A DNA stretch of 60,717 nucleotides from an uncultured Methanosarcinales archaeon. GTDB taxonomy: Archaea > Nanobdellota > Nanobdellia > Woesearchaeales > GW2011-AR9. The notes below the pieces were generated by a model. That model did not search any database, was not told where the DNA came from, and was given only the letters and a program-made list of their open reading frames with translations. The stretch covers positions 1-60,717 of the forward strand of contig CAZWBB010000007.1 in assembly GCA_964632045.1 (NCBI GenBank), written 5' to 3'. Every line of letters starts with the position of its first letter. The stretch's first letter is position 1. Position numbers and translations under genes: made by a program. Positions 1 through 47,867 of the stretch are shown piece after piece.

Positions 1-2487
1 GACCAGTTCACCCCCATAGAAAACCTCAAAAGGGATCTCAAAGTTCCGCACAACACCAAAACCGCACTCTGTCTTCTTGTCAACAGAGGCATACAGTAGA
101 GGTTCGATATGGATGTCACTCTTCTTCATACGACTCAATTTCTTTGTATCATCCTTGCAGACAACCCTCATTGTACTCTTACAGGGGATATTTCTACATA
201 TCTGTGATGGACTGAAGAGAAATGTCTGCTCACCTTCTTCCGCATCATTGGCCGGCTTGGCATAAAGCGGCAAGGCTCTCTGATTAGACCTCATCCGACA
301 TCTCACTATCTGTCCATCGTCTTTCACATCAATATTACAGCTGTTCTTCTTGAACATGTCAGATGAAATATACCTTGGGCATCTGAAATCTAATACTTCC
401 GGCCTTTGAGGGGAGAGTCGAAATTGTTGAGTGTGACGTTCGGTAGTGAGCACGTTCCCTCCAACATCGGTTATCTCAAACTCAAATGAGTGGATACCAG
501 GCGTAACATTGATGGAATCCTTCTTAGTAGCTGTGTTGATCTTGACCTGTGTCCCAAATTGATCCTTTGAAGTGAGGTTCCATTGCTTAACTTCCTCTCC
601 ATCCATCTTTAACAGAACCTTCTCTAACCCTCCACTTTCTCCATCATCCACTATCATAATATCATAAACTGCGCTGAAATCATTTTTTGGAAAAAATCCG
701 TACAACACGAGCCGTGGCAATGGATCGAAAGTTATCTTAACCCGGCCGCTTTGTGCCCTATTACCATTTTTATCATAAGCTACCGCAAAATATGATTGGG
801 TGCCTTCTCCTACCGTAACCTCATGAACATCATCGATACCAAAAGAAAATGAATTTTTGTATTCCTCCTTGCCTTCCAGCTCTCTCTTGATGATTGGTTC
901 GCCTGCTTTGTCAAGAATCATAATCTCCTGCAAACCTGCATTGAACCCTCCATCAGTAGCTTCTACCTCTAGTACAGCTCTGCTCTTGTTGTACTTCCCC
1001 TGCTTGGCGGCAAGTCTGATCTTTGGTGGGTCATCGATGAAAACCGGGTATTGAATTCCTCCATTTTCTGTGTCCGGAGAATAATGCTCCCAGGCAACTG
1101 CTCCTCCAACTAGGAGAGAAACTGCTCCTGCTGCCAATGCAATCTTCTTCCAGTGCCTGGAGTAGAAATCCGAGATGGATCCTCCGGCCGAGGACGCTTT
1201 TTGTGAAATGAACTGCCATATCTTGTTAGGTTGCTGCCTCTTCTTCTCCTTTTTCAGTTCTCTCGCTCCATTCAAAGTTATATTTGGAGGTGTGACCGAC
1301 TCAACTCGCTGCAACCACCCCGGTTGTCCAGTGACCGACCAGAGGCCTTTGAAAACCCCTTCAAAAGGCGGTTTGCTTGAAGGAAAATGGTATTTTGACA
1401 GCGGCTTGTAATCCAAGACCGGAGGAGCGATAGTGATGGGTGAAAAGTCCAATCCTTTCTGCGCTTCTACGACCGCTGCCAACAGCTCCTGTGCTGTCTG
1501 GTACCTGGATCCTTTAGCTGTTGATGTCCCTTTGTCTATGATTTCAGACAGCAACTCGGCTTTTTCACAACTCCATCGGTTCCTTATCTGGTTTGTCATT
1601 ACTTTTTTACTTTCTCCAAAATATTTCCCTCTCCAATACTCCGACAGCTTACCAGTCAACATCAAACATAATACATTAGCGAGATTATAGGTGTCAAGTG
1701 AAGGTTCTGCTTTTTCGTAAGAATCCGATAATAGAACCCCGTCCTCGTCTTTCTCATAGAGGTTAGGGACACAGTAGATTGTATTATGAAGCGGGTCTTC
1801 TGCAGAAGATCCGTAATATGTTCCAGCGACTCCTTCAGGTTTGATCAAGCTGTATAACTTGAATATCTTTCTGCCCTTGGCTCGGGCTAATCCATAATCT
1901 ACCAAATATGCGTTCTTGCCCTTGGCGTTTTCTATGATCATTATGTTTGAAGTATTGATATCCATATGGATTATCCCCTGGTGCTCTTCATCATGAGCAT
2001 ACTCATGCAGATCATCAAGCTGTTCGGCCAGCTGCCGGGAATAATGTACTATCTCCTCCAAGCTAAACATCGCCAGATCGCCTGCTGACACTGATTTTTT
2101 CCTTCGCTCAAATTCCTTCTTTCTTTCTTTTCTATCTTCTGGCAGCCTGTCGCTAAACCTGTCCTCTACCCCTATGATGTCTGAGAGGCTGTTACCATCC
2201 CCAAGGTCCTTAAACATAACACACAGCATGTCCCCGAGTTCGCAGTATCCACGATAAGACATATATTTATCTGTCAGGTCGGGGTCGCTGCTAAGATGTT
2301 CGCTCACCTGGATCTCATTCTTGTTTATATCACGAGAAGCATTACCTGCGCAGAAGTCAGTATTCAGGAAAGATTTCATGAAACGTGGATACCCATCATA
2401 CTTGATCTTATACCTGACGCTCAATGAGCCTTTACCTTTCTCTTCTACTATCTCAACTGTTTTCCCATCGCTTGTTTTTAGAGTCAT
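1..2487 (-). CDS. Receptor-like Ser/Thr protein kinase (N-terminal kinase, single TM, extracellular Ig-like repeats); 3' end runs off the window
   Basis: Absent from the ORF track (no stop in window). Manual translation from ATG 2487: MTLKTSDGKTVEIVEEKGKGSLSVRY...HQGIIHMDINTSNIMII...LVDYGLARAK; TM KKIALAAGAVSLLVGGAVAW near 1090-1150; DEGFNAGL motif near 930-960. Paralogue of 3368..6907. Confidence 0.85.
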   Translation of the reverse strand, partial: MTLKTSDGKTVEIVEEKGKGSLSVRYKIKYDGYPRFMKSFLNTDFCAGNASRDINKNEIQVSEHLSSDPDLTDKYMSYRGYCELGDMLCVMFKDLGDGNSLSDIIGVEDRFSDRLPEDRKERKKEFERRKKSVSAGDLAMFSLEEIVHYSRQLAEQLDDLHEYAHDEEHQGIIHMDINTSNIMIIENAKGKNAYLVDYGLARAKGRKIFKLYSLIKPEGVAGTYYGSSAEDPLHNTIYCVPNLYEKDEDGVLLSDSYEKAEPSLDTYNLANVLCLMLTGKLSEYWRGKYFGESKKVMTNQIRNRWSCEKAELLSEIIDKGTSTAKGSRYQTAQELLAAVVEAQKGLDFSPITIAPPVLDYKPLSKYHFPSSKPPFEGVFKGLWSVTGQPGWLQRVESVTPPNITLNGARELKKEKKRQQPNKIWQFISQKASSAGGSISDFYSRHWKKIALAAGAVSLLVGGAVAWEHYSPDTENGGIQYPVFIDDPPKIRLAAKQGKYNKSRAVLEVEATDGGFNAGLQEIMILDKAGEPIIKRELEGKEEYKNSFSFGIDDVHEVTVGEGTQSYFAVAYDKNGNRAQSGRVKITFDPLPRLVLYGFFPKNDFSAVYDIMIVDDGESGGLEKVLLKMDGEEVKQWNLTSKDQFGTQVKINTATKKDSINVTPGIHSFEFEITDVGGNVLTTERHTQQFRLSPQRPEVLDFRCPRYISSDMFKKNSCNIDVKDDGQIVRCRMRSNQRALPLYAKPANDAEEGEQTFLFSPSQICRNIPCKSTMRVVCKDDTKKLSRMKKSDIHIEPLLYASVDKKTECGFGVVRNFEIPFEVFYGGELV

Positions 2488-2524
2488 TTGCTAAATTCAA
2501 AGGCGCTTTACCAACTTTATCAGG

Positions 2525-2866
2525 TCAGGTCAGCCGATAACATCTTTTGACCTTTCCCATTAATGAAGGAAGATCATCTTTCTCATTGGGGATCTTGAAT
2601 TTAATATCATATTTGGTATTATCACGGAAATATTTCGGAACATCAAACTTTAACCGGCTTTCGATACCTGAATCGGGAGATGATGTTTCATCTTCTTTAG
2701 GCTCAATAATCCCGACCTTCTCTATCATCCAATCGTAGAAGCCATATTTGTTACCCCGGTAGCCAATGTATCCAATCGACCCTGCCAGAAGCAAGGTCCC
2801 GCTAATCAGATATATGAGGTTTCTTTTCCGTTTCTTTTCTTCAGCAGCTATTTGTTGATCTCCCAT
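2525..2866 (-). CDS. Small single-pass membrane protein
   Basis: Basic KKRKR followed by hydrophobic LIYLISGTLLLAGSIGYIGY; GGAGG upstream; inside the operon. Confidence 0.65.
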   Translation of the reverse strand: MGDQQIAAEEKKRKRNLIYLISGTLLLAGSIGYIGYRGNKYGFYDWMIEKVGIIEPKEDETSSPDSGIESRLKFDVPKYFRDNTKYDIKFKIPNEKDDLPSLMGKVKRCYRLT

Positions 2867-2880
2867 TCTAGTTCCTCCTG

Positions 2881-3366
2881 CTACTTAGTGTGGTATCTTC
2901 CACAGATGATAAATGGTGAATTTGGAATCCCTAATGAATAGTTGGCTGGTATGAAAAACAATAGATCGGACATCAGGTCAAAATTATAATCCCCGTTCAC
3001 ATCATCGTAGAGAAAATAGACGCATTGTTTAGGATCGCGAAAGTCTTTGTGTTCAAGGTAACACCTAGCAGTCTTGTACTGGTTATTCTTATCTCGAGGA
3101 TTTGTTACTGAACCAAATACTTTCTCAAAGTTTTTCTTCAGGTCATCAAATGGAGCAACTTTCCTGCCAGAGATCGTAAGAATATCACTCTTTACAAATT
3201 TTGCAGTCTCACCCTGCAGCGTTTCGCAATCATCATAAGAGTATGATTGGATGGTATATGATTTTACAGCCCGCTCCGCGACCGCGGGCATTATGCCTGT
3301 GACCATTGCTGCTCCCGCTGCCAGTACGATTGACAATAATGATGATGATTGTTTTGATGTTTTCAT
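2881..3366 (-). CDS. Secreted hypothetical protein
   Basis: Start moved to ATG 3366, next to the upstream stop at 3368; signal-peptide-like MKTSKQSSSLLSIVLAAGAAMVTGIMPAVA; several Cys. Confidence 0.65.
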   Translation of the reverse strand: MKTSKQSSSLLSIVLAAGAAMVTGIMPAVAERAVKSYTIQSYSYDDCETLQGETAKFVKSDILTISGRKVAPFDDLKKNFEKVFGSVTNPRDKNNQYKTARCYLEHKDFRDPKQCVYFLYDDVNGDYNFDLMSDLLFFIPANYSLGIPNSPFIICGRYHTK

Positions 3367-3367
3367 T

Positions 3368-6300
3368 CTAATAATTAGTCTTTGGAGGATCGTTCTGGGA
3401 ACCTCCATTGACGTTCGGGTCAGCCAGTGGAGAGCCATGTCGATGCCATCCACATAAAGGGGTAGGTCCTAAGGTCGTCACTAGCGCATCTACAAAGGAT
3501 ACCGGATGTATGTGTCCATCTTTCACTTTGTAGTGTTTTCCAGCTTCATATCCCAATTCTGGCAGCCCTCCATCGTTGAACTTGAAGCTAAGGAGTTTTC
3601 TCTCATTATCTTTTAACCTTCTCGAGGATTTTGTGTTCAGTCTGAGCTCCTCGCATCTTCCATGAGATTCTTCGTAGTCGTTAACCCGCAGCGGGGAGCC
3701 AAGAGCCAGACAGGATACAATTTGTGCACTACCTTTTGAGATTTCAGATGCTCGAGGGAGTAGTTCATATCTATAGCGTTCTTCCCAGGAATCTTTCCCG
3801 GGCTGCTTCAACTTCACGACTGAGTAAAGGACGCTTGTCATATAACCTTCATAGTACCTCGAAAACTCCGCAGCGTACTGTCCATCCTTCTCAAAGCATC
3901 GCTCCAAGTGATCCGCATCTTCAAGACGCATCGCCTTGGGTCTTTTCTTCCTGACCTCAAGCATATGGGAATAGGCAAACCGCTCACCTTCAAGTCCCAC
4001 AGTAAATTCTAATGCAGTGATATAATCTCTTTTTGTGAAAGGACATCTGCCTCTTATTGAACTCCCATCTACTTTCCATTTCTTGGGCAACTTAGTTCCC
4101 TTAAGTATCGAGGGATAAGCCCTCACTGCGGAATCCGCGTACAAGTTCCCTTTAGTAAATATCCTGATCAGCAATCTATATGACTGGTTAGAAGTGCAGT
4201 GACTTTCTGAAGGAAATTCGGCGTAAAGGGTTGGTTTAATGCGGATCCTTACTTTCTCCCTTTCACTTTCGGCATTCTCGTTATCATAACATACCACACT
4301 GATCCTCTTGTTGCAGAAAGGCTCTGAACAGAACTTCTTGGGAGAAAAACGGAAGGCAACTTCAGAGTGAACACCGCTGATATCCAAATCCGCATATTTC
4401 CTGCGCCCGGTCCGGGAAGTCACCTTACAACGGCGCACGGCGTAATCGTCTGATGCAACGACCTTGCAGACAGACTTGTGACGATTATCAACTGCTACGT
4501 AAGGCTTGCAAGTAACACTCTCAATTTTTGGCACCACATTGTAAAAATGGATCTTTCTCTCTCTAGTAGAGTTGGTGTTACCTATCTTGTCCCGAACCAT
4601 TACATAATATTTATGGGTTCCTTCCGTGACTTTGGTCGCACCCTTACGGTCATAGATACTTAGAAACACATTTTTCTTAAAACTCTCCTTGCCTTTAGGA
4701 TCAAACTTATGAAGCACTTTTCTATCCTGCATCAAGTTCACTTCGGACAGACCAGCGTTGTAACCTGTGTCTTTAACATTTATAGATAGCCAAGTTTTTG
4801 TACCATTGGTCCTGTAATTCTCTGGTTTGAGTGAAACTGATGGCGCAGGATCATAATCAATAGCAAGCAGGTTGCTCCGGCCAACATTTCCTTCTTTATC
4901 AACGACTTCAGCCAGATACTTATGTGATCCTTGTTTCACTTTATTACATTTCCCTTTCTTACCCAAGCAAAATTCTAAACTTACCTTAAATGTATCTCCC
5001 AGTTGCCCTTCTTTCTCAAAGATACGCTTTTCTCCATCGTAGAGAATGATCTTCTCTAATCCAGAATTATAACCCTCATCTACCGCTTCCAGTTCGATCT
5101 TCCTTCTTGTGAAGTCGGAGTCCTGATGAGTATCGGTAAGCTTGACAATTGGAATCTTATCCACAAAGAAATTCAACACTAAGGGGGGGCTTGTGGTTGA
5201 ATTTCCCGCTTTGTCAATCACCTCTAGTACATAGGTATGTGAATCTTTCTTACCGGTGTATCCTTTTTTCACAGGGAAATCTTTCTTAAATTCACTGCCC
5301 AGTCTTCCCCCTCCTTCAAAGATAGGTTTACCGTCTTCTTTTAAGATAATTCTCTCTATTCCGGGGTTAAGTCCGTCATCCTGTGCCGACATTTTAATTG
5401 TAGTCGAACCAGAGAGACTGGCCCCTTTGCTGCTCTCCAACTTAACTTCACCAGGAGGCTTGTCAAAATAATCATAAATTGCGTTTGGTATAGCATAAGC
5501 AGCACCCAACAGACCTAATCCAAATACTACTTTGCCCAACCAGCTCGAACTTTTTTTCTTTGCTGGCTTCTTGGTCGGAACAGTCTTCCGCTTAGGGGTA
5601 GCTTTTCTTGGAGCTGGGACCTTTTTCTTTGTTTTTCCGGTGACAGGAGCAGCAGCGGTCACTTTCTTCTTTTTGCTAGTGGGGTACAATGCACTTGCAT
5701 CAAACAGCATCCTTTCGTATTCCTTTTCCTCATCTTCCAGACTAAACACAGCATCATCAGTGAGGAATGTACCAAACACGCTTTCATAATTGGGCTGTCC
5801 AAAATCCTGCCCCAGAAAAGTGTCATATGGCTCAAATTCCAACACTGGACCTGTTACCTCGGGGACGAACAGATCCAGCTGCTCTTGTACTGAAGATATC
5901 TCACCCAGAAGCTCGGCCGCTGTCTTGTATCTAGAACCTTTATCTGGTGATGTTCCTTTCGCGACAATATCTGATAACAACTCTGCCCTCTCCATATCCC
6001 ATCCATCAGCAATGTTCTTAGCTATCTCTTCTCGGCAATCTCCCTGAGCTCTCCAATACTCAGACAACTTCCCTGTCAACATCAGACAGAAAATATTGCA
6101 GAGATTGTATGTATCCAACGATGGTTCAGCCTTCTCATAAGAATCGGAATGGAGAGCTCCATGCTCATCCTTCACAAACAGGTTAGGTGCACAGTATATG
6201 GTGTTATGTAGCGGGTCATCTGCTGAAGAGCCGTAGTATGTACCAGCCACACCTTCTGGCTTGACCAAGTTGTACAACTTGAATATGTCCCGGCCTTTCG

Positions 6301-6907
6301 CTCTTGCCAAACCGTAATCGACCAGGACAGCTCTCTTACGACCTCCCCTTTCCAATATCATGATATTTGATGGATTTATATCCATATGGATGATCCCCTG
6401 ATGTTCGTCATCATAATCATAGCTATGCATGTCATCGAGCTGTTCTGCCAGCTGTTTCGCCGAGTCTACTATCTCCTCAAGACTCAATCTCTTGATATCT
6501 TCTACCTTGACATCTTTCTTTCTCTTCTCAAATTCCTTTTCTCTCTCTTCTGGATCCTTTGGAAGTTTCTCACCAAAATCATCTTTGACATTGATGAACT
6601 CTTCCAGGCTGTTCCCATCTCCAAGATCCTCAAACATCACACAAAGCATGTCTTCGATCTCACAGTACCCACGATATGATAGATATTTGTCCCTGAGTTC
6701 ACTGCTTTCACTGAGATGCTCGCACACCTTAATCTCATTCTTATTGATATCGCGGGAAGCATTTCCTGAACAGAAATCGGTATTCAGAAACGATTTCATG
6801 AAACGGTTGTAACTATCCCTGGTTATCCTGTAGCGGACGCTAAGAGAACCTCTTCCTTTCGACTCAACTATCTCTATTGCTTTTCCGTCAGTTGTTCTCA
6901 GTGTCAT
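3368..6907 (-). CDS. Receptor-like Ser/Thr protein kinase with TM and extracellular Ig-like repeats
   Basis: KGRGSLSVRY (Gly loop variant), IIHMDINPSNIM catalytic loop, DYG; Lys/Pro-rich linker, TM WLGKVVFGLGLLGAAYAI, three DxGxNxG(L/I) beta repeats and a Cys-rich C-terminus. Start 6907 gives an ATGA overlap with the upstream stop and matches the paralogue N-terminus. Confidence 0.85.
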   Translation of the reverse strand: MTLRTTDGKAIEIVESKGRGSLSVRYRITRDSYNRFMKSFLNTDFCSGNASRDINKNEIKVCEHLSESSELRDKYLSYRGYCEIEDMLCVMFEDLGDGNSLEEFINVKDDFGEKLPKDPEEREKEFEKRKKDVKVEDIKRLSLEEIVDSAKQLAEQLDDMHSYDYDDEHQGIIHMDINPSNIMILERGGRKRAVLVDYGLARAKGRDIFKLYNLVKPEGVAGTYYGSSADDPLHNTIYCAPNLFVKDEHGALHSDSYEKAEPSLDTYNLCNIFCLMLTGKLSEYWRAQGDCREEIAKNIADGWDMERAELLSDIVAKGTSPDKGSRYKTAAELLGEISSVQEQLDLFVPEVTGPVLEFEPYDTFLGQDFGQPNYESVFGTFLTDDAVFSLEDEEKEYERMLFDASALYPTSKKKKVTAAAPVTGKTKKKVPAPRKATPKRKTVPTKKPAKKKSSSWLGKVVFGLGLLGAAYAIPNAIYDYFDKPPGEVKLESSKGASLSGSTTIKMSAQDDGLNPGIERIILKEDGKPIFEGGGRLGSEFKKDFPVKKGYTGKKDSHTYVLEVIDKAGNSTTSPPLVLNFFVDKIPIVKLTDTHQDSDFTRRKIELEAVDEGYNSGLEKIILYDGEKRIFEKEGQLGDTFKVSLEFCLGKKGKCNKVKQGSHKYLAEVVDKEGNVGRSNLLAIDYDPAPSVSLKPENYRTNGTKTWLSINVKDTGYNAGLSEVNLMQDRKVLHKFDPKGKESFKKNVFLSIYDRKGATKVTEGTHKYYVMVRDKIGNTNSTRERKIHFYNVVPKIESVTCKPYVAVDNRHKSVCKVVASDDYAVRRCKVTSRTGRRKYADLDISGVHSEVAFRFSPKKFCSEPFCNKRISVVCYDNENAESEREKVRIRIKPTLYAEFPSESHCTSNQSYRLLIRIFTKGNLYADSAVRAYPSILKGTKLPKKWKVDGSSIRGRCPFTKRDYITALEFTVGLEGERFAYSHMLEVRKKRPKAMRLEDADHLERCFEKDGQYAAEFSRYYEGYMTSVLYSVVKLKQPGKDSWEERYRYELLPRASEISKGSAQIVSCLALGSPLRVNDYEESHGRCEELRLNTKSSRRLKDNERKLLSFKFNDGGLPELGYEAGKHYKVKDGHIHPVSFVDALVTTLGPTPLCGWHRHGSPLADPNVNGGSQNDPPKTNY

Positions 6908-9900
6908 TTTAATTCCGAGCATACTTTGAAATTTTTGCGACCGGATACTCTCTTGCCTGAGGCCAAAGGCGTTGAAGCTTTTATGGTTAATCTCACCTCA
7001 GACTTATCTTCCGGACAAGTCCCCGTTATCCTCGAACCAGGAATACTTCGATCCAACTCCCAATTCATGTCCGGTATTTTTGGCTTAGTCAGGTAATCAA
7101 ACCTGAAACCTTTCAATTCGTTCTGGATCTTTCTGTTATACTTGGCCTCAAACTCAAAAACGAATTTACCTGATTCCTCCACATGATATTTTGTCTTGGT
7201 GATATGATATTTGTAAGGTTCAAAAGTCAATTTTGTCATATCTGTTTCTTCATTACCGGAGATATCTCCAACAGATACTTCCAGTTTAGAACGACATCGT
7301 ACTTCCCCACAAGCTTGTTTCGGACTAAATGCATAACTCAATATGTATGCTTGACCCTCACGGGAAATGTACTGAGATATCTCTCCTGCATCAAGCTTGA
7401 ACTCTTTATCAAACCCTTTGTTTTCATACTTTCTCTTACCTGGTATCTTAACCTTCTTTTTAAAATGAGAAACTACCTTAAGTTCACTCAGTTGATTCAC
7501 GCTTTTTACAAGAATACCACATTTCCTTTTCTCACTTATCCCACCACGAAACATACTGACGACCTCTTTACCTCCACACCCAAACTCAGCTATCACCAAA
7601 GGATAAATTTTCACTTCCACATTTTCTTTCTTCAAATTTCCGTTTCCGTCGGTAGCTATCGCCTCCAAATCCACTTCACATCTTCCTTCACTTGGGCATA
7701 CCTGACTTGGACTGATCCAATGATTTATAATTGACTCTCCTCCATCCACCATAAAACGCTTTACCTCATCTTCTCCAATCTTTGAAACGATCTCAATCTG
7801 TCTTATTATTCCAGCAGACCCATCATCCGCTTCAAGTACGATCAGTTCCTCTTCACTTCTTGGATCAGCCAGAAGATAATCTTTCTTTCCTGCGATGTAA
7901 CCAAATGAGGTGATCTTGGGCGGCCTATGGTCGTTCTTGTACAGATTATCGGAAATGGGGTACTGTTTCTTGGCGGCTGGTTGTTCTTTCTCCTTTGGTT
8001 GATCCTTGGCAGGTTTGGCAACCGCCTCTTTCTTTCCTTTCGGTTTATCTTTTGCACTTTTCCTTTCCTTGCCTTTCTCGTCACTGCCTTTCTTTCCAAT
8101 GCCCGCAGGTAGATCCACGATACCGCCATCTTTGGGTGAATGGACAGAAGCTGAATATTCTTGTTTCTCTATCCTCTCTTTCTCTGATGAGATGAATTGC
8201 TCGTAATTGTCGACCGCCCAACCTCTTGCAGAATCACTGGCTGCGGTGATTCCAAATACCATCGCTACTGCCAGAGCTGTCCCACGCCTCCACCAACTTC
8301 CCTTTTTTTTTTTTGCATACTTAGACTGCAATTCCTCTGCCATCCGCTGCACTACCTGATTATCATTTTCGGATTCTGCACTTACTCGATATTGTGCAAC
8401 GGAATGAGGTATTTCCATGTCAACTGCGTCCACGTAAGAACCTACGAGCTTTTTCCATGTCTTTTCGCCCGATAATCCTCTAGGGAGGCCGAATAATTCT
8501 TCTTTATAGACCATCTTTCTCCATCCATCATCCTCATCAGAATCACCAAATATCCCAATGTTGGAACCCATATCTGTTATTTGTTGCAGTGCTTCTGAAA
8601 CAGTGAAATTACCCAAATTGTAATCCCTGACAAACTGACGAAATACTGCGCTGCCATTCAGAGCAGCTTCCCAATACTTCTTCTCAAATTCATTCATAAC
8701 GATGACTTCTTTATCAGGAGATCCTTGCGGGTCACCAAGAAGAATATTACACAATTCTTCTGGAGTGCAATCAGGCTTGACATCATCAGTTACAAATCTG
8801 GATAGCGCTCTATAATTACCTTTTTCGTTTGCCTGCATATCCTCCAATCTAGCTTTAAGTGTTTCCGGTTTGGAAAACTGATCATATATTGCTTTTGGAT
8901 AAGATACGTTGTGTCTGACATCCTCCCCAGTCAGCCATTCTAAGGCAAAAGGCTTACTGCCGCTGCAGGATGCCTGAAACTGTACCAGGATTACCTGCTC
9001 CAGCTTGTCACGCGGTGATATGCCCCCCTCAAGCGGTTCTTCCTCTGCGGGTTCCTCTTGGACAGGTTCTTCCTCAACTTCTTCCTGCGGAACATTAAGC
9101 AGGACCTGACCATACTTCTCTTTCTGCTCATTTTCAGTCATCCTGTAAAGTGGATGGCCCATAGTATCATCCTCTGCTGTCCAAAACGGTCTCAGCAGCA
9201 GGCCGCACAAATCCTTTCTGGAAATTAACTCATTTTGGTCAGCTGCCTGCGTAAGCGCTTTGTATTCATCTTTATCAAGTCCATCTAAAAACCCCATGAG
9301 CACCGCAGTACTTGACAGATGGGAGTACGCTTCTTCCACCGATCTTTCTTCATCATCGTCTATCAGAGCTTCAGCAAGGTCATTACCTCCCTGGTCCCCC
9401 TCCATAATGAGCAGGTGCAGCAGATTATTTGGGCGGAAAACTCTCATATAATCTTCCCCCACCGGTCCAACAGAGCTTGGCTTGATCTTGCTCAGACGAT
9501 CCCAATCTAGATATTGTAACGAATAGGGAGTCAGCAACACTTCGCATATTCCCCTCGGTGTGAGGTTTTCATCTCTGCAACCGAACATATCACGTACTTT
9601 TGGCAAATCCTCATCTGACACTCCTTCAAGCACACTGCTCAAAGCATCGTGGGAACTAAGATATTCGAGCATCTCTTTCAAACTTTTTTTTCTTTCCTTC
9701 CGGTTTAGTATATCCAGTGCTGGATGCTTTGGTTCACCCTGTTTTATCAATGCGCTCTGTTCAACAAGAACTTTTCCTAGAAGATTCTGTGGAACAAAAA
9801 CTTTTTTCTCTTTCTTCTCTTCAGGTATCTTGCGCAGTATCTGGCCATACTCTTCTTTCTGCTCTTCTTCAGACATCTGATATAGAGGATGACTTCTAAC

Positions 9901-11133: not shown

Positions 11134-11178
11134 AGCTTCGGAGAACCTCTCCGGTAGAGGCTGCAGCGCTTCGCCCTC

Positions 11179-13325: not shown

Positions 13326-14548
13326 TTTGTTTCTACGATATCCAAGTCGGTTATCCTATGGGGCACTTTACATATCTGAGCTATATCATACGTTGCTTTC
13401 AATTGAGCGAGGTAGAGACCTGGGTTATTCATATCCTCAAATTTAGGATCAATCCTGACCTCAGGATCATGGTCCAGCAAAGTTGAAATCCCCATACGAA
13501 TATATAGATCACCCAAAGCAAAATTCAGGAAGTCATTTTCTAATTTCATCCCACGTATGAAGTTATCTTTGCCTTCACTGCTAGCCATCCTCTGCGAAGA
13601 TTGAAAGCGTATCGTTTTATGATATTGGAGGGACCATTTTCCTGAATCATCTCCAGTGAGATCGTAGACTACGATCTTTCCATCATCTACCCCAAAGAAG
13701 CAGTAATAAAGTAGATCATTCTTCTTATGCAGTAGAATAGAACTGGCTTCGGAAGGTAGATAGTGTTTCCCTTTCTGAAGCGCTCGAAGGTAATCAAAAT
13801 CACCTTCGGAGGTGTCTTTCTTCTCATAATCAGCAATCATCAGATGATTATGCACCACGAACCCTCCCCTGCTGTCGGCAGCAACAGTGAATCGGTCCAA
13901 CGCATCCAAAGCAGTGATCTTACCTCTCATCTCAAATAGTTTCTTCTCTCCAGGATAGGAAACAACATCTTTTCCACAGGCAGCCAAGATCTCATCACCT
14001 GGAGAAGCACTTTCAGAACTCTTCCTGGTGACAATCCGTCCCGTGGGACGATATTTTTCACTGATCAACTTCAGGTTATCAATTGTAGCATCATCAGAAT
14101 ACAACAGGTATCCACCGATCACTTTCCACTTGAACCTGTCAGATAAGTAAAGGGCCAGATAGACACCTCCTCCTGATTCTGTTGTTACACAACCATTAGT
14201 CAATTCTTTGTTGATCACCTTTATCTTTTCACTCTTGTCAACATTTGCCAGCAGCTGATCTAAGGTAGCCTCAGCAGTGATTGTCCAGTTCTGACCGAAA
14301 GGTTTACGAATCTGGTCTCCTGCCACTTCTGCCAATGCAGCCCTGCTCATCGCCCAAAGTCTGTCTCCCAAAGATTCAAGCATATGAGGTGTCCTCTCAA
14401 TACTTTCAAGTATCAGGGTCCTGTAATATTTGCTTCCTCCTTCATCAAAAAATACTCCATTCACATCAGGGAACACATACAGACCTTTGGTATATTGCTC
14501 TTTCTCCTCTGAAGGAGCCTCAACTCCGATTACTACCTTTTTTGCCAT
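13322..14548 (-). CDS. Hypothetical protein with WD40/beta-propeller-like C-terminal part
   Basis: ITALDALDRFTVAADSRGGFVV and FFGVDDGKIVVYDL resemble propeller blades; ATGA-coupled to PP2C. Confidence 0.6.
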   Translation of the reverse strand: MAKKVVIGVEAPSEEKEQYTKGLYVFPDVNGVFFDEGGSKYYRTLILESIERTPHMLESLGDRLWAMSRAALAEVAGDQIRKPFGQNWTITAEATLDQLLANVDKSEKIKVINKELTNGCVTTESGGGVYLALYLSDRFKWKVIGGYLLYSDDATIDNLKLISEKYRPTGRIVTRKSSESASPGDEILAACGKDVVSYPGEKKLFEMRGKITALDALDRFTVAADSRGGFVVHNHLMIADYEKKDTSEGDFDYLRALQKGKHYLPSEASSILLHKKNDLLYYCFFGVDDGKIVVYDLTGDDSGKWSLQYHKTIRFQSSQRMASSEGKDNFIRGMKLENDFLNFALGDLYIRMGISTLLDHDPEVRIDPKFEDMNNPGLYLAQLKATYDIAQICKVPHRITDLDIVETK

Positions 14549-14554
14549 TTTAAG

Positions 14555-15913
14555 TTACCTCTTAGTCAGATCTTCAACTGCTGACATTAATCTCATAATC
14601 AGCGAGTTTTTGGTGTCGGTCTTCAGAGGATCATACCCAAAATGGGAGATCCTCTTTTTAGGTGACCTGATATCAATATTTTCATGAGCAGCTTGATTTG
14701 TCTTGAGGATCAACTGGTATACGTCTTTGTCTGCCTGGCTTGGGAGCATCTTTTCAACGATCTTTATTGAAGGGTGTTTTGCCAGGTTGATACTGGTCTG
14801 GTGATAGCAGAAAAGAAGACCAGCCATGTCTCCACCCGCAAACAATGCTTCTTTGTGCTCAGCGTACGCATCATCATCCGATGAGTCCCATAATATGGTG
14901 GCCACTTTTTCGTACTTGTCCAAGGCATCAGCATAATCTCCTGCCACAAATGAGATCCTGCCCAGCCATAGGTTTGCTTCCACATCGCCCTCGACCAGAT
15001 TACAGATCCCTAAGAAATAACTCTTCTTGTCAGATGTCTTCTTAGACTCATGAGCCAGATGACGGTAAAGGGAAGTAAGATTGTCCTGGATCCTTAACTT
15101 GTCTTTTTCAATCTGGGATTTCAACTCATCTGCTTTGACGAGTTTCTTAATGAACCATGCACTGTCAGTATCACTTCTAAGGCTTTTGGTATGATCTCTC
15201 TTGGTCGATTCAACTCTACTTTTGATAACGGCCTCCATCTCAACCACCTGTTCATATGCTTTCTGCAATGGCATGAGAGCATGCCGAGGGGGAACCTTGT
15301 TGTTGAGCAGACAGTTGGCAAGCAGCTCGTTGGCCCTGTAATGCTCCGGCTTGTCCGCCGTCTGTTGATCACCACTATGCCAACTATATATAAGATGCTT
15401 GCTTATCGCAGCAAAATAATAATCTCTTGCTTCATGACCAGACTCTAGGCAGATATCAGATATTTCCCTTGCCTTGGCCAGATGTTCTAATCGTTTATCT
15501 CCAGATGTCTCCTTTGCCCTCAAGGACTCTAAGTAGACTTTCCACATCGCCTTGGCTTCGCCTTCCCTCATCCCTTCGATGATCTGCAACCTTGAATCTG
15601 TATCTTTCATGCTTTTAGCCAACCCTAGACAGACCTGATCATTGTACTCCTGAGCCTGTTGATAGACTTCCTTGGGAACATCTGTGCTTTCCAGTATCTT
15701 CTTTACTTCAGTGTGAGCTTTTTGTAACCCCTCCTCATCCAGTGCGAGATGGTTGTAGGAGTCCCTGATGTAGCAATCCACCAGCAACAATCGCTGCAAG
15801 TGACCATCCTCATACCTTTCAAGAAAATTACCTGCTAACTTCATCCGCTTCTTTTTGCCTGGAGTGATATTCCAGTCTTCAACAAATCTCCGCTCATAAT
15901 TATCTCTGTTCAT
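14555..15913 (-). CDS. TPR-like helical repeat protein
   Basis: EANLWLGRISFVAGDYADALDKYEKV TPR pattern; start moved to ATG 15913 behind a GGAGGT RBS. Confidence 0.7.
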   Translation of the reverse strand: MNRDNYERRFVEDWNITPGKKKRMKLAGNFLERYEDGHLQRLLLVDCYIRDSYNHLALDEEGLQKAHTEVKKILESTDVPKEVYQQAQEYNDQVCLGLAKSMKDTDSRLQIIEGMREGEAKAMWKVYLESLRAKETSGDKRLEHLAKAREISDICLESGHEARDYYFAAISKHLIYSWHSGDQQTADKPEHYRANELLANCLLNNKVPPRHALMPLQKAYEQVVEMEAVIKSRVESTKRDHTKSLRSDTDSAWFIKKLVKADELKSQIEKDKLRIQDNLTSLYRHLAHESKKTSDKKSYFLGICNLVEGDVEANLWLGRISFVAGDYADALDKYEKVATILWDSSDDDAYAEHKEALFAGGDMAGLLFCYHQTSINLAKHPSIKIVEKMLPSQADKDVYQLILKTNQAAHENIDIRSPKKRISHFGYDPLKTDTKNSLIMRLMSAVEDLTKR

Positions 15914-15932
15914 ATTGAAAAACCTCCTAAAT

Positions 15933-15962
15933 AAAAAAACCCCACCGCCACGAGCGACGGGG
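15933..15962 (-). terminator. GC hairpin plus U7 tract (intrinsic-terminator-like)
   Basis: Minus strand CCCCGTCGC-TCGTG-GCGGTGGGG followed by TTTTTTT, 14 nt after the kinase stop. Confidence 0.5.
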
Positions 15963-15976
15963 CATGTCATCATAAA

Positions 15977-17848
15977 TCAGACACTTTCCTCCTCTGGAAT
16001 CTTACTATCAACAGCCGCAGGTTCTTCAGGCAATCCTGCATCCGCAACTGGATCCTCAGCCAGCATATCTTTACCAGCGTTCATCTTCAGCGAACCAGGT
16101 TTGCCTGCTGCAGGTGGAGCTGCTTTTACTTCCGGTTTTGGAGCGATCGTTCTCTTTTTTCCCTCCAGCAGCTTGATGATCCGACCTTTCTTGCTCGTGT
16201 CAGGAAATTCATACTGATTGATGTTATCAGCAACATATTGTAATGCATTTGTATACCCGGTGATGTCATAATTACCCATGGCAGCCTGTAGGTCTCGTAT
16301 CCTTTGACCCAATCTATCGATATCAGCTAATGAATCTTGCACCTGCTGAGATGCCTTGTCACGCAATGTTTGGATGCCCTGTTGCATCTGCTCTGGAGCT
16401 CCTGCTTTTGTTGCCCCCTCTAAAGTCACATCATAACTATCGAGAATATCTTGCAATCCAGTATGCGCAGCCTCTTTGTCACTCTTCTCCACAACCAGAT
16501 TCGCAATGCTCTGCGTTGTATCAGCAAGCAGCTCCCTTTCCCTATCAATCTTCTTGTCCAGAATACCAACTTTCTCTGATAGGATTTCACCAAAAATCTT
16601 CTTTATCTGCTTACTTTCATCCTCTTTGATCAAACTACCCGCTTTATTGACGAATGCTTGATAAGAACAATCAGAAGTTTCAAAGAAGCTCTTGAAAACT
16701 GCTTCTTGGAACATGTCTTTTTTTTCTTTCCAGGTACTTTCAAACCTGTCGACCGGACGGAGTATGACAGTGTAATAGTGGCCATCACCCTTTTTTTCCT
16801 CAACCTTGTAATAACCGTCATCCTCAACATACTCTTTCAACCGGTCTCGGATGTCGCGAAGCGAAGGCAGTATCCAGCCTTCCGAGTCGTTATAAACTTC
16901 ATCCCCAAATCCAAGACCCCGAACATCTACCATCTTACTACCTAACTTCTTCATCTCTGCCTTATCCTGTAGGTAGCCTGTCCTCGAACCTCTTCTCTTC
17001 CTGTCAAGCCAACCGCAGATTGCTACCGCGGAAAGAGTATCCCTGCTCATCGTAAGTTGATCGATACATTTACCGGTTCCCAAGAAATGATTAATATAAT
17101 CGAATTCATCGGCATTGATGGAAAGATCTGCAAGACTTAGCTCTTGATAGGCGTTCTTGTTACTGATCCTCCGATCACAGAGCTTTATCTCACCGTAGAT
17201 CATCGCTCTTTCCAATTGAGCTTTGTTCCCTTTAACACTCTCATAATCAAATCCACAAAGTATATTTCTTGGAATAAGATCCCCATGCACTTTTCCTTTC
17301 CCATGGGAGTCTATGAGTGCACTCACCACCTGTATCATCACTTTATACCTAAAAGCTTTAGCCACCCTTGGGTCAACATCCAGCCTCTCATTGATATCCT
17401 GCCGCCAACCATACTTTTTACCACTTTCATCTTTCTTGATCTCTACTCCGGGGAAATCATTGAAGACAATATCTAAGTCCGTTCCCCAATACTCCATCAG
17501 CATTGCAGCACGTGGTTGCTTATCTTTCCCTTCTTTCCCTTCTCTCACTTCTCCTACACAATGCACAGTAACAAGATGATCAAGCGGATTTGCTTTCTGC
17601 TCGAAAGCAGCGTCTAAAAATTTATCACCATCCCTGTTCTCTTTTATTACTTTCAATGCAATATACTTCTTGATCGGCCAGGAGCCCTCACCTGGTTCTT
17701 TCCAACTGTCACCCATCGCATTCTTAAGTTCGACAGGTGGCTCAAAACGATATACCTCACCCATCAGGCCATCTCCAACAGCTTCATAACCTTCTAAAGC
17801 TATCTCATCCCCTCCTTCGGGAGTGAAATATAATTTGTCTTCAGTCAT
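15977..17848 (-). CDS. Soluble Ser/Thr protein kinase-like protein with C-terminal coiled coil
   Basis: VGDGLMGEVY, IALK, VHGDLIPRNIL, IKLCDRR; start moved to ATG 17848 behind GGAGGAG. Confidence 0.8.
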   Translation of the reverse strand: MTEDKLYFTPEGGDEIALEGYEAVGDGLMGEVYRFEPPVELKNAMGDSWKEPGEGSWPIKKYIALKVIKENRDGDKFLDAAFEQKANPLDHLVTVHCVGEVREGKEGKDKQPRAAMLMEYWGTDLDIVFNDFPGVEIKKDESGKKYGWRQDINERLDVDPRVAKAFRYKVMIQVVSALIDSHGKGKVHGDLIPRNILCGFDYESVKGNKAQLERAMIYGEIKLCDRRISNKNAYQELSLADLSINADEFDYINHFLGTGKCIDQLTMSRDTLSAVAICGWLDRKRRGSRTGYLQDKAEMKKLGSKMVDVRGLGFGDEVYNDSEGWILPSLRDIRDRLKEYVEDDGYYKVEEKKGDGHYYTVILRPVDRFESTWKEKKDMFQEAVFKSFFETSDCSYQAFVNKAGSLIKEDESKQIKKIFGEILSEKVGILDKKIDRERELLADTTQSIANLVVEKSDKEAAHTGLQDILDSYDVTLEGATKAGAPEQMQQGIQTLRDKASQQVQDSLADIDRLGQRIRDLQAAMGNYDITGYTNALQYVADNINQYEFPDTSKKGRIIKLLEGKKRTIAPKPEVKAAPPAAGKPGSLKMNAGKDMLAEDPVADAGLPEEPAAVDSKIPEEESV

Positions 17849-17849
17849 T

Positions 17850-20294
17850 TTATTCTCCTCCATAAACATTTATGATCCTCATTCTTCCTCTTGGCATATC
17901 CAGAGTAGTGATCGAACCATCCCCTCCCTGGAATTTTACTTCTCCTCTGTCCAATACAACCAACCTCTGACCATCATAGTGAAAATCAGAGATCTTTTCC
18001 ATGGCTCCGAAGCGAGAGATCCGAACGGGAGCGGACCTGCTCGGCTCTTCCCCGCCCGTGAAATAGACTCCACCATAAGCTTTGTTAAGGAAGATCGAAA
18101 AAAGGATGCAGTCGATACCTTTGTAATAAACAGGTTGCATACGCTTGATCATAGGATTTCCAGAAGGGAATCTGCAGTACAATTCATCATTTTTATAAAT
18201 CTCTCCGATGGAAGTTCCCGAAAAGATATCGTCATTCCGAGCAACCAATGATTTGATCGTCCCGGGGATAGTATATAGCTTTCTGATTCTGTCGGATCGG
18301 CCATCATATCCATATACCGTGCCACCCCTGCTTATGATGAACCGTTCCCTTGCAGCGGCCACACGCAACGTTTCCTGATTTGCACTCTCAAGAAGGAGGT
18401 AATCGCTGATCTCGTCCAGACTTATCTCAAGACGTTTGGTATGTTGAAATTCCCTCATTCCCACCCTGATCGCCCCTACACCTTTAAATGTCGCCAGCAG
18501 AAAGTTATCATCGCCAATCGATGGGGAGAATGCAATTGAGGAAGCCACCTTCACTTGTCTGCCGGACAACCTGATCTCTCTCCGCACTTCGGGCTGATCA
18601 GGATCGGTCATCTCAACTCCTGCTTCATAGCCTGCGGCAGTCAGACATCTTTCATCAAGAGAGAAGCTTGTGATCGTACTATATCTCTTACCTTGCATGA
18701 TAACCCTTCCTTTTTTACCGGCAACTGATGCTTCGGCAACCTTCGTGCCATCAGTGGCAAAGTACCTTCTCTCCCTATAAGCCTTTCTTCGTTCAGGAAA
18801 TCTTACATCCAACTTGAGGGCGAGCTGCTTAATCTTAGTAAATATTTCGGTGGCAACCTCATAGACCATAGTTTCCTTTTCCCTGAGTTGAGATGGCACA
18901 GAAATTTTCTCTTCCAATGGTTGGCCATTCCTGAACCCGTGAACCCCGCTCAAGTAGACCGGATTCTCATGACCTGGATTTTTAAGTAAGATGTTACACA
19001 ATGGTTCTCCATCCTTTGGAAAAGAAGAAAAAACGTCTCCTTTGCTCCTGCATGAATTTATTATCAACGCAAGGATGCTCTTATCATAGTCCATCCAAAC
19101 GTGATCTTCATCCTGGTATTTGTTCCAATAGATGTTGATCTCATTATTCAACTTATCAAAAGCCTGCTCCATATTGACTCTCTTTTCCAGATTGGCAAAG
19201 GTCTGTCTGCTTTTGGCTGTCAATTGCACTTCTTCACTAAGTATCGGGATCATCAGATTCTCATCATGCAGCCCCAGGACAGGAACCCAAAGTTTTTCCA
19301 GTTCCTCATCGGTAGCAGCATAACCATATTTATCGCGGATAACCTTAAGCAGGCGCATCGAGTCGACCGCCGACCATCCAACGATATTTCCGGCGATCTC
19401 TGGACAAAGAGAAGCAAGGATCATGGATGTGACTCCAGGCTCGTTCACCAGATTTATATAGCTTGGCCTGGCCTTGCATCCCGTCTCCATCAAGTCACGC
19501 AACCTCTGACCTCTTTCCAGTATCATAGGAACATAGAAAGGAAGTTCAGAAAGGATACGCTCACCAAAAGAAGATACAAATCCAAATACGTCTTTACTCT
19601 CCCTCACTGAATGAATATCTTCGATTAGCTGATACATCAAGTTCCACTCGTCCGCAAATTTGGTCTTCCCCTTGTTACACTTTCCACTTTTTTTCACATA
19701 TCCACAGTATACGCGCCAATCCTTTTCCATATCGATTACTGGTTTCTTCACTGCAGCCTTCTTGTGTGCAGGAAGCAGCAGATAGTCAGCATATTCTTTC
19801 AAAGTAGGTGGTCGACCCATGTATTCACCAGATGCATCCACAATAACGTCAGATTCCGTGAAGAACCTCTCAAATTCTCCAGTGTTTTCCTGAAATCCTC
19901 CTGCTCCGTTCATGAAAGGATCTGCTCTCCCTCTTATCTCCAAAACCAATTGATCATCCTCTACTCGTCTTTCAAGATTACCTTCTTGCTCATCTGTATG
20001 GACCCTGAAGTTTAGTCCATGGCTGACTGCCAATTCCCTGATACTACTTTCGATACCTTTAACAGAAGTACCATCGGCATCGACCATATCCGCAAAACCC
20101 CTTGACTCTCTGAACCTTTCCTCTGTCTCATAAGCCCCGTTGTAAAAAACAATCCTCCCAACCTGCTCTAAGAAATCATCTGCATCATAATCGAAGAAGA
20201 GATTTCCATCCTTGTCAGGACCATATTTTCCCAAATTCTTGAAAAGATGTTCAATTACAGCTCCCTTGCCAATAATCCCTAAAGTTTTCTTCAT
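17850..20294 (-). CDS. LDH/MDH-fold domain fused to a C-terminal beta-propeller-like domain
   Basis: LGIIGKGAV, SDVIVDASG, LVNEP, NIVGWSAVDSMRL and VLGLHDE match the LDH/MDH motif order; beta-rich C-terminal ~300 aa; probable ATG at 20294. Confidence 0.65.
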   Translation of the reverse strand: MKKTLGIIGKGAVIEHLFKNLGKYGPDKDGNLFFDYDADDFLEQVGRIVFYNGAYETEERFRESRGFADMVDADGTSVKGIESSIRELAVSHGLNFRVHTDEQEGNLERRVEDDQLVLEIRGRADPFMNGAGGFQENTGEFERFFTESDVIVDASGEYMGRPPTLKEYADYLLLPAHKKAAVKKPVIDMEKDWRVYCGYVKKSGKCNKGKTKFADEWNLMYQLIEDIHSVRESKDVFGFVSSFGERILSELPFYVPMILERGQRLRDLMETGCKARPSYINLVNEPGVTSMILASLCPEIAGNIVGWSAVDSMRLLKVIRDKYGYAATDEELEKLWVPVLGLHDENLMIPILSEEVQLTAKSRQTFANLEKRVNMEQAFDKLNNEINIYWNKYQDEDHVWMDYDKSILALIINSCRSKGDVFSSFPKDGEPLCNILLKNPGHENPVYLSGVHGFRNGQPLEEKISVPSQLREKETMVYEVATEIFTKIKQLALKLDVRFPERRKAYRERRYFATDGTKVAEASVAGKKGRVIMQGKRYSTITSFSLDERCLTAAGYEAGVEMTDPDQPEVRREIRLSGRQVKVASSIAFSPSIGDDNFLLATFKGVGAIRVGMREFQHTKRLEISLDEISDYLLLESANQETLRVAAARERFIISRGGTVYGYDGRSDRIRKLYTIPGTIKSLVARNDDIFSGTSIGEIYKNDELYCRFPSGNPMIKRMQPVYYKGIDCILFSIFLNKAYGGVYFTGGEEPSRSAPVRISRFGAMEKISDFHYDGQRLVVLDRGEVKFQGGDGSITTLDMPRGRMRIINVYGGE

Positions 20295-42710: not shown

Positions 42711-42839
42711 GTAGAAGAGTAAATGCTGCGAGTATATATTTGTTGCTATGCTAACACTAGACCGGCCAAAACATTTATAAATAAGCATCATCCTCAAGTA
42801 AATAATTTAACAAGTATTACACTATGGGGGGAAAGTGAA

Positions 42840-44861: not shown

Positions 44862-44927
44862 ATGTGCAGTGAGGCGGTGGAGCGGTGTGCAGTGAAGTAG
44901 CTGGCAGGGAGGCTACACATCCGCTAC

Positions 44928-47866: not shown

Positions 47867-47867
47867 A

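Follow-up and report, generated by a model that had tools for sequence, protein, structure and literature searches.

A conserved cluster of Hanks-type kinase, PPM phosphatase and orphan repeat-protein genes, a candidate phospho-signalling module of Woesearchaeal (DPANN) archaea

We analyzed a window of 60,717 nucleotides, which is the entire contig C7 (CAZWBB010000007.1) of an archaeal assembly (GCA_964632045.1, referred to below as G000) of 2.21 Mb in 79 contigs, with 89% completeness and 1.6% contamination. Positions 1 to 20,294 of the window are filled by eleven co-oriented, abutting open reading frames (ORFs) on the minus strand, named o1 to o11 in the direction of reading, the last of which runs off the contig end. 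Their products include three Hanks-type kinases, a PPM/PP2C phosphatase and several repeat proteins. The cluster is real and conserved; its genes belong mostly to orphan families, and it appears to represent a form of Hanks-kinase/PPM signalling that has not been described before. For the conservation analysis, 13 related loci were fetched, and a family sample of 114 genomes in 58 genera was used.

The genes are packed like those of an operon. The junctions from o1 to o11 measure -20, +3, +6, -4, -4, +45, -4, +1, +14 and +37 nucleotides (computed with the internal ATG starts of o8 at 6907 and of o9 at 3366), and seven of the ten overlap or span at most 6 nucleotides. GC skew is negative across all of 1-22,000. 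The start of o1 at 20,294 is backed by all of its orthologues, which open with MxxKTLGIIGKG. Upstream of it lie 277 nucleotides (20,295-20,571), the only gap longer than 45 nucleotides on the minus strand within 1-21,735 and presumably the promoter region of the cluster. A preliminary description of this DNA, made from the letters and an ORF list, had already reported eleven co-oriented minus-strand ORFs, mostly overlapping or a few nucleotides apart, and both the ORF listing and the junction lengths confirm it. Nearly all of its domain calls were also borne out by profile comparison with PDB sequences, AlphaFold2 (AF2) models and Foldseek. Nearly every gene type in the order that it gave was recovered as well, except that the coiled coil of o6 found no support from the tools and that o9 and o10 have no homologue in the 13 related loci. 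Here, domains were called with profiles built from orthologues, because the single-sequence Pfam scores fall below the gathering cut-offs (Pkinase, 25.4 and 22.5 bits against 31.7; PP2C_2, 19.4 against 24; TPR_16, 25.4 against 32.7). The sole Pfam match above its cut-off in the cluster is Big_13 on o8 (30.8 bits, cut-off 27).

Hanks-type kinases are recognized by a glycine-rich loop, the beta-3 lysine, an H-x-D motif with a downstream Asn, the Asp of the DFG motif, the alpha-C Glu and residues of subdomains IX and XI. The soluble kinase o2 (15,977-17,869, 630 amino acids) carries the Hanks-type features: among 14 sequences K73, H195, D197 and D232 are invariant and N202 nearly so, and the consensus of the glycine-rich loop, IGxGSxGxVY, is canonical. 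Its profile (A2) found StkP as the best match in the PDB (3.5e-16) and 1712 kinase sequences at E <= 0.1, in alignments that cover the N-lobe through the catalytic loop only; the C-terminal half is charged and poorly conserved. The membrane kinase o8 (3368-6922, 1184 amino acids, with a likely start at 6907) consists of a kinase domain (~1-360), a lysine-rich linker, a membrane segment predicted from hydropathy at ~465-483 and a large ectodomain with Ig-like repeats. Its paralogue o11 (1-2487, at least 829 amino acids, cut by the contig end) has the same layout, with the membrane segment at 449-467, and is 45.5% identical to o8 across ~700 amino acids. The membrane kinase profile (A3) reached 3.7e-11 for its best PDB match (9ymt) and 8e-11 for PknB. 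Across 13 sequences K43, D181 (in H-M-D), N186, D202, D270 and R331 are invariant, and E63 and G204, which completes D-F/Y-G, are nearly invariant, and the Hanks-type features of o8 and o11 thus extend to the alpha-C Glu and to subdomains IX and XI.

The two parts of the membrane kinase differ strongly in conservation. The average pairwise identity among orthologues is 31.6% for the kinase parts (77 of 77 pairs) and 16.7% for the parts after the membrane segment (74 of 77 pairs, those in which at least 30 columns align). In complete genes the post-membrane part ranges from 110 to 710 amino acids, and the ectodomains are unalignable between genera. Ig-like modules recur in the ectodomains of o8 and o11 of this genome and, weakly, in that of o7.

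The hallmark of PPM/PP2C phosphatases is a set of metal-binding aspartates in ED, DG, GD, DG and DN/DD motifs. These are present in o5 (12,060-13,325, 421 amino acids), where D19, D41-G42, G116-D117, D182-G183 and D280-D281 are invariant in 13 sequences. The phosphatase domain occupies residues ~1-300, and the profile (A4) matches tPphA (8e-23), Stp1 (1e-12), PstP (5.5e-10) and PppA (8.3e-6) in the PDB. The tail behind it varies in length and matches coiled-coil chains such as SMC and tropomyosin (E 2e-4 to 0.02).

In bacterial PknB/StkP systems with their PPM partners (PstP, PhpP/Stp1), kinase and phosphatase are likewise encoded together, the kinase likewise has an N-terminal cytoplasmic catalytic domain, a single membrane segment and a C-terminal ectodomain, and these proteins are the best solved relatives of the present ones. 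The cluster differs from them in its hypervariable Ig-like (Big_13-like) ectodomain, its second, soluble kinase and its archaeal host. It does not belong to the PASTA kinases: no PASTA repeat appeared in the Pfam scan, and NCBIfam PknB_PASTA_kin gave 30.3 bits against a cut-off of 450, with the catalytic loop alone matched. To our knowledge, the five further partners found here (the LDH/MDH-like protein, two propellers, the TPR protein and the helical protein) have no counterpart in bacterial PknB/StkP operons. The term "eukaryote-style" used in the preliminary description is too strong: the closest solved relatives are the bacterial StkP/PknB kinases and bacterial PPM phosphatases, and the topology is that of PknB.

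The gene o1 (17,850-20,294, 814 amino acids) joins a Rossmann domain resembling lactate and malate dehydrogenases (LDH/MDH; ~1-470) to a C-terminal Kelch-like beta-propeller (~505-814). The AF2 model has a mean pLDDT of 73.1, and residues 66-138 form a disordered, low-confidence, genome-specific insert. By Foldseek, the model matches LDH/MDH chains (E 1e-8 to 3e-7, TMt 0.56-0.66), and its C-terminal part matches Kelch-type or designed six-blade propellers (TMt ~0.5); the predicted N-terminal fold is thus that of LDH/MDH, a Rossmann domain followed by a substrate domain. Canonical LDH/MDH enzymes have a G-x-G-x-x-G motif, a catalytic His and Asp/Arg substrate residues. Five residues, N284, E285, D311, R314 and H343, never vary in the o1 alignment (A1, 13 sequences), and yeast MDH3 has LD-x-R and GGH where o1 has D311-x-x-R314 and G-x-H343. 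We take these o1 motifs to hold the substrate-binding Asp/Arg and the catalytic His. Unlike members of the LDH/MDH superfamily proper, o1 has large inserts and no significant sequence similarity to them (the best PDB sequence match of its profile, yeast MDH3, has E 0.26), its glycine motif reads G-x-x-G-x-G with mostly Asn in place of the acidic residue after strand 2, and the domain is accompanied, in one protein or in the neighboring gene, by a Kelch-like propeller inside a kinase operon. Nine related loci encode the two halves separately, whereas they are fused in G066, G079 and G004, as well as in G502, a genome of another family; at the 13th related locus only the propeller gene is visible, where the contig begins. 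That they occur now split and now fused argues that the two halves may work together. Residues 1-470 retrieved generic Rossmann clusters alone from the ESM Atlas (scores <= 0.79), which is uninformative. A scan for related loci with an o1 pattern alone gave 77 matches and no confirmed relative, and a protein search with A1 (limited by its word index, 7999 candidates scored) returned the protein itself and one ENA protein of 797 amino acids at 23% identity.

The conserved substrate-site residues could be taken to mean that o1 is an active 2-hydroxyacid dehydrogenase and that its activity or assembly is what the kinases and the phosphatase switch, perhaps together with the flavoenzyme encoded next to it. 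Directly upstream of o1, on the same strand (20,572-21,735), lies a FAD-dependent oxidoreductase gene (Pfam DAO, 1.2e-46) whose product is closest to L-2-hydroxyglutarate oxidase (LhgO; NCBIfam, 179.7 bits, cut-off 299). It holds this place here and in six of the 13 related loci, which points weakly to 2-hydroxyacids. Such a metabolic control unit would agree with the invariance of N284, D311, R314 and H343 and with their alignment on the D-x-x-R and catalytic His of MDH3. We nevertheless regard it as quite improbable: the similarity to true MDH/LDH is not significant, the dinucleotide-binding motif is altered when set against the canonical one, the LhgO-like neighbor is missing from at least five loci, and controlling a single enzyme with two kinases, two propellers and a membrane sensor would be unusually elaborate. 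The next gene, of a TrmB-family regulator (21,943-22,683, plus strand; Pfam TrmB, 4.9e-17), is a conserved flank of the cluster. Homologues 74% and 55% identical flank it in G004 and G005, four further loci have TrmB, and TrmB abuts o1 in at least four of the loci where the oxidoreductase gene is not directly upstream.

Between the kinases and around the phosphatase lie proteins of the kinds from which scaffolds are usually made; TPR repeats, the two propellers and coiled coils may, by analogy, play that part here. The alpha-helical o3 (14,555-15,973, 472 amino acids) is weakly conserved and contains TPR repeats (Pfam TPR_16 2e-5, under the cut-off); its profile (A6) matches an engineered TPR protein (8.2e-27) and BBS8 (7.6e-5) in the PDB. 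The product of o4 (13,322-14,548, 408 amino acids) is predicted to be a WD40-like beta-propeller of an orphan family. Its AF2 model (pLDDT 80.6, pTM 0.85) resembles Trm82, Sec12, beta-TrCP and Lis1 in Foldseek (E 4e-8 to 1e-5, TM ~0.45-0.55), and its profile found a single, meaningless match among PDB sequences (E 0.23). Its members share a conserved C-terminal PHRIT motif, and so small a family of orphan propellers is of wider interest: a search of 1.84 billion cluster representatives found 48 at E <= 1e-3, 40 of them at E <= 1e-30. WD40 and Kelch propellers are able to read phosphorylated peptides in other systems. A complex prediction for the o5 phosphatase domain with o4 scored 0.09 and 0.02 (mark 0.32), which weighs neither for nor against binding. 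The charged o6 (11,179-12,063, 294 amino acids) has no match in Pfam or the PDB and is presumably helical or coiled-coil, judging by its composition; positional counterparts of 300-930 amino acids, 9-15% identical, lie between the phosphatase and the membrane kinase in all 11 loci that reach there.

The remaining three genes are peculiar to this genome. The repeat-rich o7 (6904-11,133, 1409 amino acids) contains internal repeats (205-444 against 449-689, E 3e-21 to 7e-27) and a single weak hydrophobic segment at 951-969 (hydropathy maximum 1.31), and its residues 1265-1379 match 855-966 of the o8 ectodomain (E 1.8e-4). Two small putative ORFs follow o8. The first, o9 (2881-3453), has 190 amino acids from a GTG, or more likely ~161 from the ATG at 3366, with a hydrophobic segment at residues 40-58 (hydropathy 2.01). 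The second, o10 (2525-2866, 113 amino acids), has a predicted N-terminal membrane anchor (residues 17-35, hydropathy 1.70). Neither has a Pfam match.

The conservation of the cluster separates a shared core from such additions. Strong relatives of o8 were found in two of 40 sampled relatives, and their neighborhoods hold o1 to o5 in the same order, flanked by TrmB and the oxidoreductase. In all 13 related loci, as far as the contigs permit, the order is o1a, o1b (the two halves of o1), o2, o3, o4, o5, a charged helical ORF and a membrane kinase. The soluble kinase is present in 13 of 13, o4 and o5 in 12 (the exception is cut by a contig end), a gene in the o3 position in 12 (it is missing in G099), and the helical ORF and membrane kinase in all 11 loci that extend far enough. 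The order is also partly found outside the family. Of 401 genomes sampled evenly from the taxonomic order, the o1 profile matched only G000, G005 and G502, and in G502 the fused o1 is followed by a kinase gene, two ORFs and a PP2C gene. The conserved unit thus comprises seven to eight genes, in an arrangement shared by at least 10 genera and by one other family. In tblastn, o7, o9, o10, o11 and a MoxR/vWA pair described below had no match in the 13 related loci, and the first three, the second membrane kinase and the MoxR/vWA pair are, by this comparison, additions of this genome. All component types named in the preliminary description are real, but the unit that is conserved has seven to eight genes rather than eleven.

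Within the family, 14 of 114 genomes carry o1; they belong to 10 of the 58 genera, and among the 67 high-quality genomes seven have it. The o4 profile also matches in 14 of 114, and both are present together in 13. The two exceptions are incomplete assemblies: G079 has o1 without o4 (76% complete, locus cut at a contig end) and G104 has o4 without o1 (59% complete). Conserved co-occurrence in related genomes, on which the preliminary description had staked its proposal, was therefore found, in 13 syntenic loci and in the 13 genomes shared by o1 and o4. This also bears on the simplest alternative, that the genes are mere neighbors with no joint function. Nothing speaks directly for co-transcription or physical interaction, as that alternative would have it. 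Yet the shared gene order in at least 10 genera and in one other family, the overlap of start and stop codons and an almost perfect co-occurrence of o1 and o4 make it very improbable indeed.

A further possibility is a housekeeping-type regulator of the envelope or of cell division, comparable to the Gram-positive pairs of PknB/StkP and PstP/PhpP. In that case the state of the envelope would be read by the membrane kinase, the targets would be the coiled-coil and repeat proteins, as cytoskeleton-like elements, and the AAA ATPase encoded next to the module in related genomes would remodel them. The PknB topology, StkP, PknB and Stp1/PstP-type phosphatases as the best solved relatives, and the similarity of the o5 tails to SMC and tropomyosin chains agree with this, and the AAA ATPase is weakly similar in NCBIfam to CdvC and PAN-type ATPases (E 2.5e-9, far under the cut-off). 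However, neither PASTA nor another envelope-binding domain was found in the Pfam scan, ectodomains that do not align between genera would be odd for the sensor of a conserved envelope component, and the module was not found in ~100 of the 114 family genomes, many of them at least 95% complete, which is unexpected for a core division regulator. We consider this alternative unlikely.

The cluster probably continues on another contig of the same assembly, C50 (locus L013). Positions 3-680 of C50 (plus strand) match residues 951-1131 of o8, and C50 also carries homologues of genes that, in relatives, stand in convergent orientation to the membrane kinase; the presence of both makes the join of C7 to C50 probable and would place the C-terminus of o11 there. 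The preliminary description had proposed a complete surface-sensing cascade, in which a receptor might pass the signal through the soluble kinase to its targets. Within the window such a unit is not complete, as the locus probably extends onto C50 and is paired there with a convergent operon. The latter encodes a small membrane protein, a ~360-amino-acid protein, an AAA ATPase, a P-loop NTPase of ~500 amino acids and a helical protein of ~550 amino acids. The AAA ATPase has a single domain of the classic clade (VAT/p97, 1e-57), with Pfam AAA in eight of eight aligned members. The P-loop gene was matched by tblastn in eight related loci, and its product matches PDB sequences in the P-loop region alone (best E 0.0026). 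The helical protein belongs to no known family (Pfam matched one of 10 members, E 0.0094), and ten further accessory proteins yielded nothing useful in Pfam. On C50, downstream of the putative o11 C-terminus, lies a 614-amino-acid ORF (677-2521, plus strand) with an N-terminal hydrophobic, signal-like segment and no Pfam match; should C50 join C7, it would add a twelfth gene to the minus-strand cluster. Inserted in the convergent operon of this genome (5830-9047, minus strand) are genes for a MoxR-like AAA_5 ATPase of 522 amino acids (38.4 bits, cut-off 22) and a weak vWA protein of 550 amino acids (20 bits, cut-off 27). That the conserved P-loop and helical proteins are homologous to this MoxR/vWA pair was considered and rejected, with hhalign probabilities of 68% (for the P-loop only) and 0.1%.

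According to Kaur et al. (2020, PMC7159879), a MoxR AAA+ gene coupled to a vWA gene is the conserved core of ternary conflict systems, and in one of the themes described a vWA protein goes together with an active kinase and a PP2C. The present locus could accordingly be read as an NTP-dependent conflict or immunity-type system as in multicellular bacteria, directed at viruses or rival cells, in which ATPase chaperones control the assembly of repeat scaffolds, the kinases and PP2C regulate, and a variable membrane-proximal component serves as sensor or effector. The likeness lies in the adjoining AAA and P-loop ATPases, the TPR, propeller and coiled-coil parts and the hypervariable membrane component, the same kinds of parts as the propeller and TPR components and variable membrane-spanning regions described there. 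The MoxR-like gene with its weak vWA partner, weak matches to TCAD9 (E 0.002-0.004) and bpMoxR (two of eight members, E 0.0023) and the patchy distribution (14 of 114 family genomes) add to it. The MoxR-vWA pair that defines these systems is confined to this genome's copy, however, and the conserved P-loop and helical proteins are unrelated to MoxR/vWA beyond the P-loop. No recognizable effector (nuclease, protease, TIR or pore-former) was found in the scanned locus proteins. PADLOC-DB, searched with 10 proteins, gave generic kinase and ATPase matches only, covering the catalytic cores (MkoA, 2.2e-5; PD-T4-6; IetA, 8.6e-5), and places the locus in no defence system. The kinase catalytic residues are kept here, whereas most kinase domains are disrupted in the conflict systems according to PMC7159879, and the locus is fixed in one conserved chromosomal place and does not look mobile. 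That the locus is a conflict system appears unlikely, though a little less so than the envelope or division regulator.

We consider it quite probable, judging from these sequences, that the cluster encodes a working, reversible phospho-switch module with transmembrane input. That it is a lineage-specific, vertically kept Ser/Thr phospho-signalling module of the Woesearchaeal (DPANN) family is the reading that we prefer, tentatively and somewhat short of an even chance. The core would consist of the membrane Hanks kinase, with its cytoplasmic kinase domain, one membrane segment and fast-diverging ectodomain, the soluble Hanks kinase and the PPM/PP2C phosphatase with its coiled-coil tail. The TPR protein, the WD40-like propeller, the charged helical protein and the LDH/MDH-like domain with the Kelch-like propeller would act as non-catalytic partners. 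In the proposed mechanism, the ectodomain would bind an outside cue (a surface, another cell or host, or a state of the envelope), and binding would activate the membrane kinase; the kinases would phosphorylate the repeat and scaffold proteins, one another, or both, and the phosphatase would reset the switch. The LDH/MDH-like domain, whose substrate-site residues are kept, may contribute a metabolite or NAD(H) input, or may itself be a regulated enzyme. The convergent operon, with its AAA ATPase, P-loop NTPase and helical proteins, is the most plausible output by adjacency alone.

The nature of the cue is addressed by an indirect argument. A PknB-like topology combined with a fast-diverging ectodomain suggests an external ligand that differs between lineages, and these two features are the main evidence that may point to recognition of cells, hosts or surfaces. 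Contact with a cell, host or surface as the cue is possible, and we hold it with less confidence than the signalling module as such.

Several observations weigh against the preferred reading of a vertically kept signalling module. The glycine-rich loop of the membrane kinase is degenerate, with one Gly (GSLSxRY), and the DFG position of o2 reads C-D, with the Asp alone kept, so that atypical or weak activity of both kinase types is possible. The single-sequence Pfam scores of the kinases and the PP2C are below threshold, as given above, and the AF2 models of o1 and o4 come from shallow 13-sequence alignments with moderate TM values of ~0.5-0.66. No FHA or other recognized phospho-binding domain was found in a Pfam scan of 18 locus proteins, and no phospho-acceptor was identified. 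The absence of the module from ~100 of 114 family genomes means that it is dispensable, the link to the convergent operon consists in adjacency, and the ends of C7 and C50 share no exact sequence overlap, their join resting on homology and synteny.

Phosphorylation that gates a machine on contact is known from bacteria. In the threonine-phosphorylation pathway of type VI secretion, the PpkA kinase, the PppA phosphatase and Fha1 gate an AAA+ machine on surface or contact cues. A membrane Hanks kinase with an extracytoplasmic sensor and a PP2C are common to that pathway and to the present locus, and PppA is among the matches of o5. The differences are that the 18 scanned proteins lack FHA and that the neighboring ATPases here are a classic-clade AAA protein and an orphan P-loop protein. 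No type VI core gene was recognized in the locus, where these families were not searched by name, and the likeness is one of functional analogy only. An archaeal precedent is the network controlling the archaellum in Sulfolobus, with the FHA protein ArnA, the vWA protein ArnB, the kinases ArnC and ArnD and phosphatases. There, Hanks kinases and a phosphatase control a surface structure through scaffold-like proteins, but the network is not one conserved operon of this make-up and has no LDH/MDH-like or propeller partner. The statement in the preliminary description that the architecture is unlike any described system still stands, as none was found in the literature searched, and PADLOC, NCBIfam and Pfam yielded nothing specific; nor did that literature contain a paper that brings DPANN or Woesearchaeota together with kinases and PP2C.

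The genomes of DPANN archaea are pared down, and a dependence on other cells is assumed for them; little has been described of how they sense a host or their surroundings, or of their protein phosphorylation. To maintain a module of seven to eight genes in the same order in at least 10 genera costs such genomes a good deal, and the module offers concrete, testable candidates: two kinases, a phosphatase as their eraser, scaffolds of orphan families and a receptor whose ectodomain diversifies. An LDH/MDH-fold protein in a signalling operon, repeatedly joined to or split from a Kelch-like propeller, is of wider interest in itself. If the module controls the neighboring ATPase operon, a new archaeal machine would be defined. 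A more far-reaching version of the preferred reading, which we regard as speculative and unlikely, holds that the two convergent operons form a contact-sensing apparatus of Woesearchaeal episymbionts. The ectodomain would read the surface of a host or neighbor, and the kinase/PPM switch, assembled on the two orphan propellers, the TPR protein and the coiled coils, would gate the AAA/P-loop machine, with the LDH/MDH-like domain reporting the cell's own or a host-supplied 2-hydroxyacid or NAD(H) state. If true, this would be an archaeal functional analogue, built from unrelated parts, of the phosphorylation gate in contact-dependent bacterial machines.

The housekeeping genes near the cluster are archaeal (aEF-2, adenylate kinase, nucleoside diphosphate kinase (NDK), a TrmB regulator and GlmS), and the elongation factor 2 (EF-2) of the window is 80-86% identical to that of metagenome-assembled genomes (MAGs) titled Nanoarchaeota or Candidatus Woesearchaeota. 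Judged by these EF-2 neighbors and the housekeeping genes, the host is therefore a DPANN (Woesearchaeal) archaeon, and the guess in the preliminary description of a small-genome-type archaeon proved right in this respect. Many records with EF-2 65-84% identical are titled "uncultured Methanosarcinales archaeon", and one "Parcubacteria group bacterium"; these public taxonomic labels are probably wrong. The G000 assembly, at 2.21 Mb, exceeds every sampled family member (0.6-1.7 Mb) and contains lineage-specific additions, namely o7, o11, the MoxR/vWA pair and several sigma-70 paralogues. Its size could reflect a real genome expansion or a mixed bin, the contamination estimate being 1.6%.

Other features of the window were observed. 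The EF-2 match is ~2.8-3.0 kb long rather than 2.2 kb in several related MAGs (loci L027, L036, L046, L051 and others), which suggests an insertion, possibly an intein; the EF-2 gene of the window (23,860-26,058) is without it. The NDK ORF (27,060-27,650, minus strand, 196 amino acids) is matched by Pfam NDK in two stretches, the best at residues 100-180, as would be expected if the protein had an insertion or an extended N-terminus compared with the model of 135 positions. Scans of the window for tRNA and Rfam families gave no match. Homologues of the bacterial-type sigma-70 factor lie at 54,099-55,412 and 55,617-56,831 (both plus strand) and on contigs C58, C6 and C25, with at least six paralogous places in this archaeal genome; a 437-amino-acid protein matches Pfam Sigma70 regions 2, 3, 4 and 1.2 (E 2.5e-14, 1e-6, 1.7e-11 and 5.7e-5). 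Sigma-70 matches occur in 15 of 31 sampled relatives, this genome counted, including 11 of 18 genomes of the same family. Finally, five abutting, co-oriented ORFs of 712, 662, 317, 306 and 650 amino acids at 42,723-50,715 (plus strand), without a Pfam match at E <= 1e-4, resemble another orphan operon.

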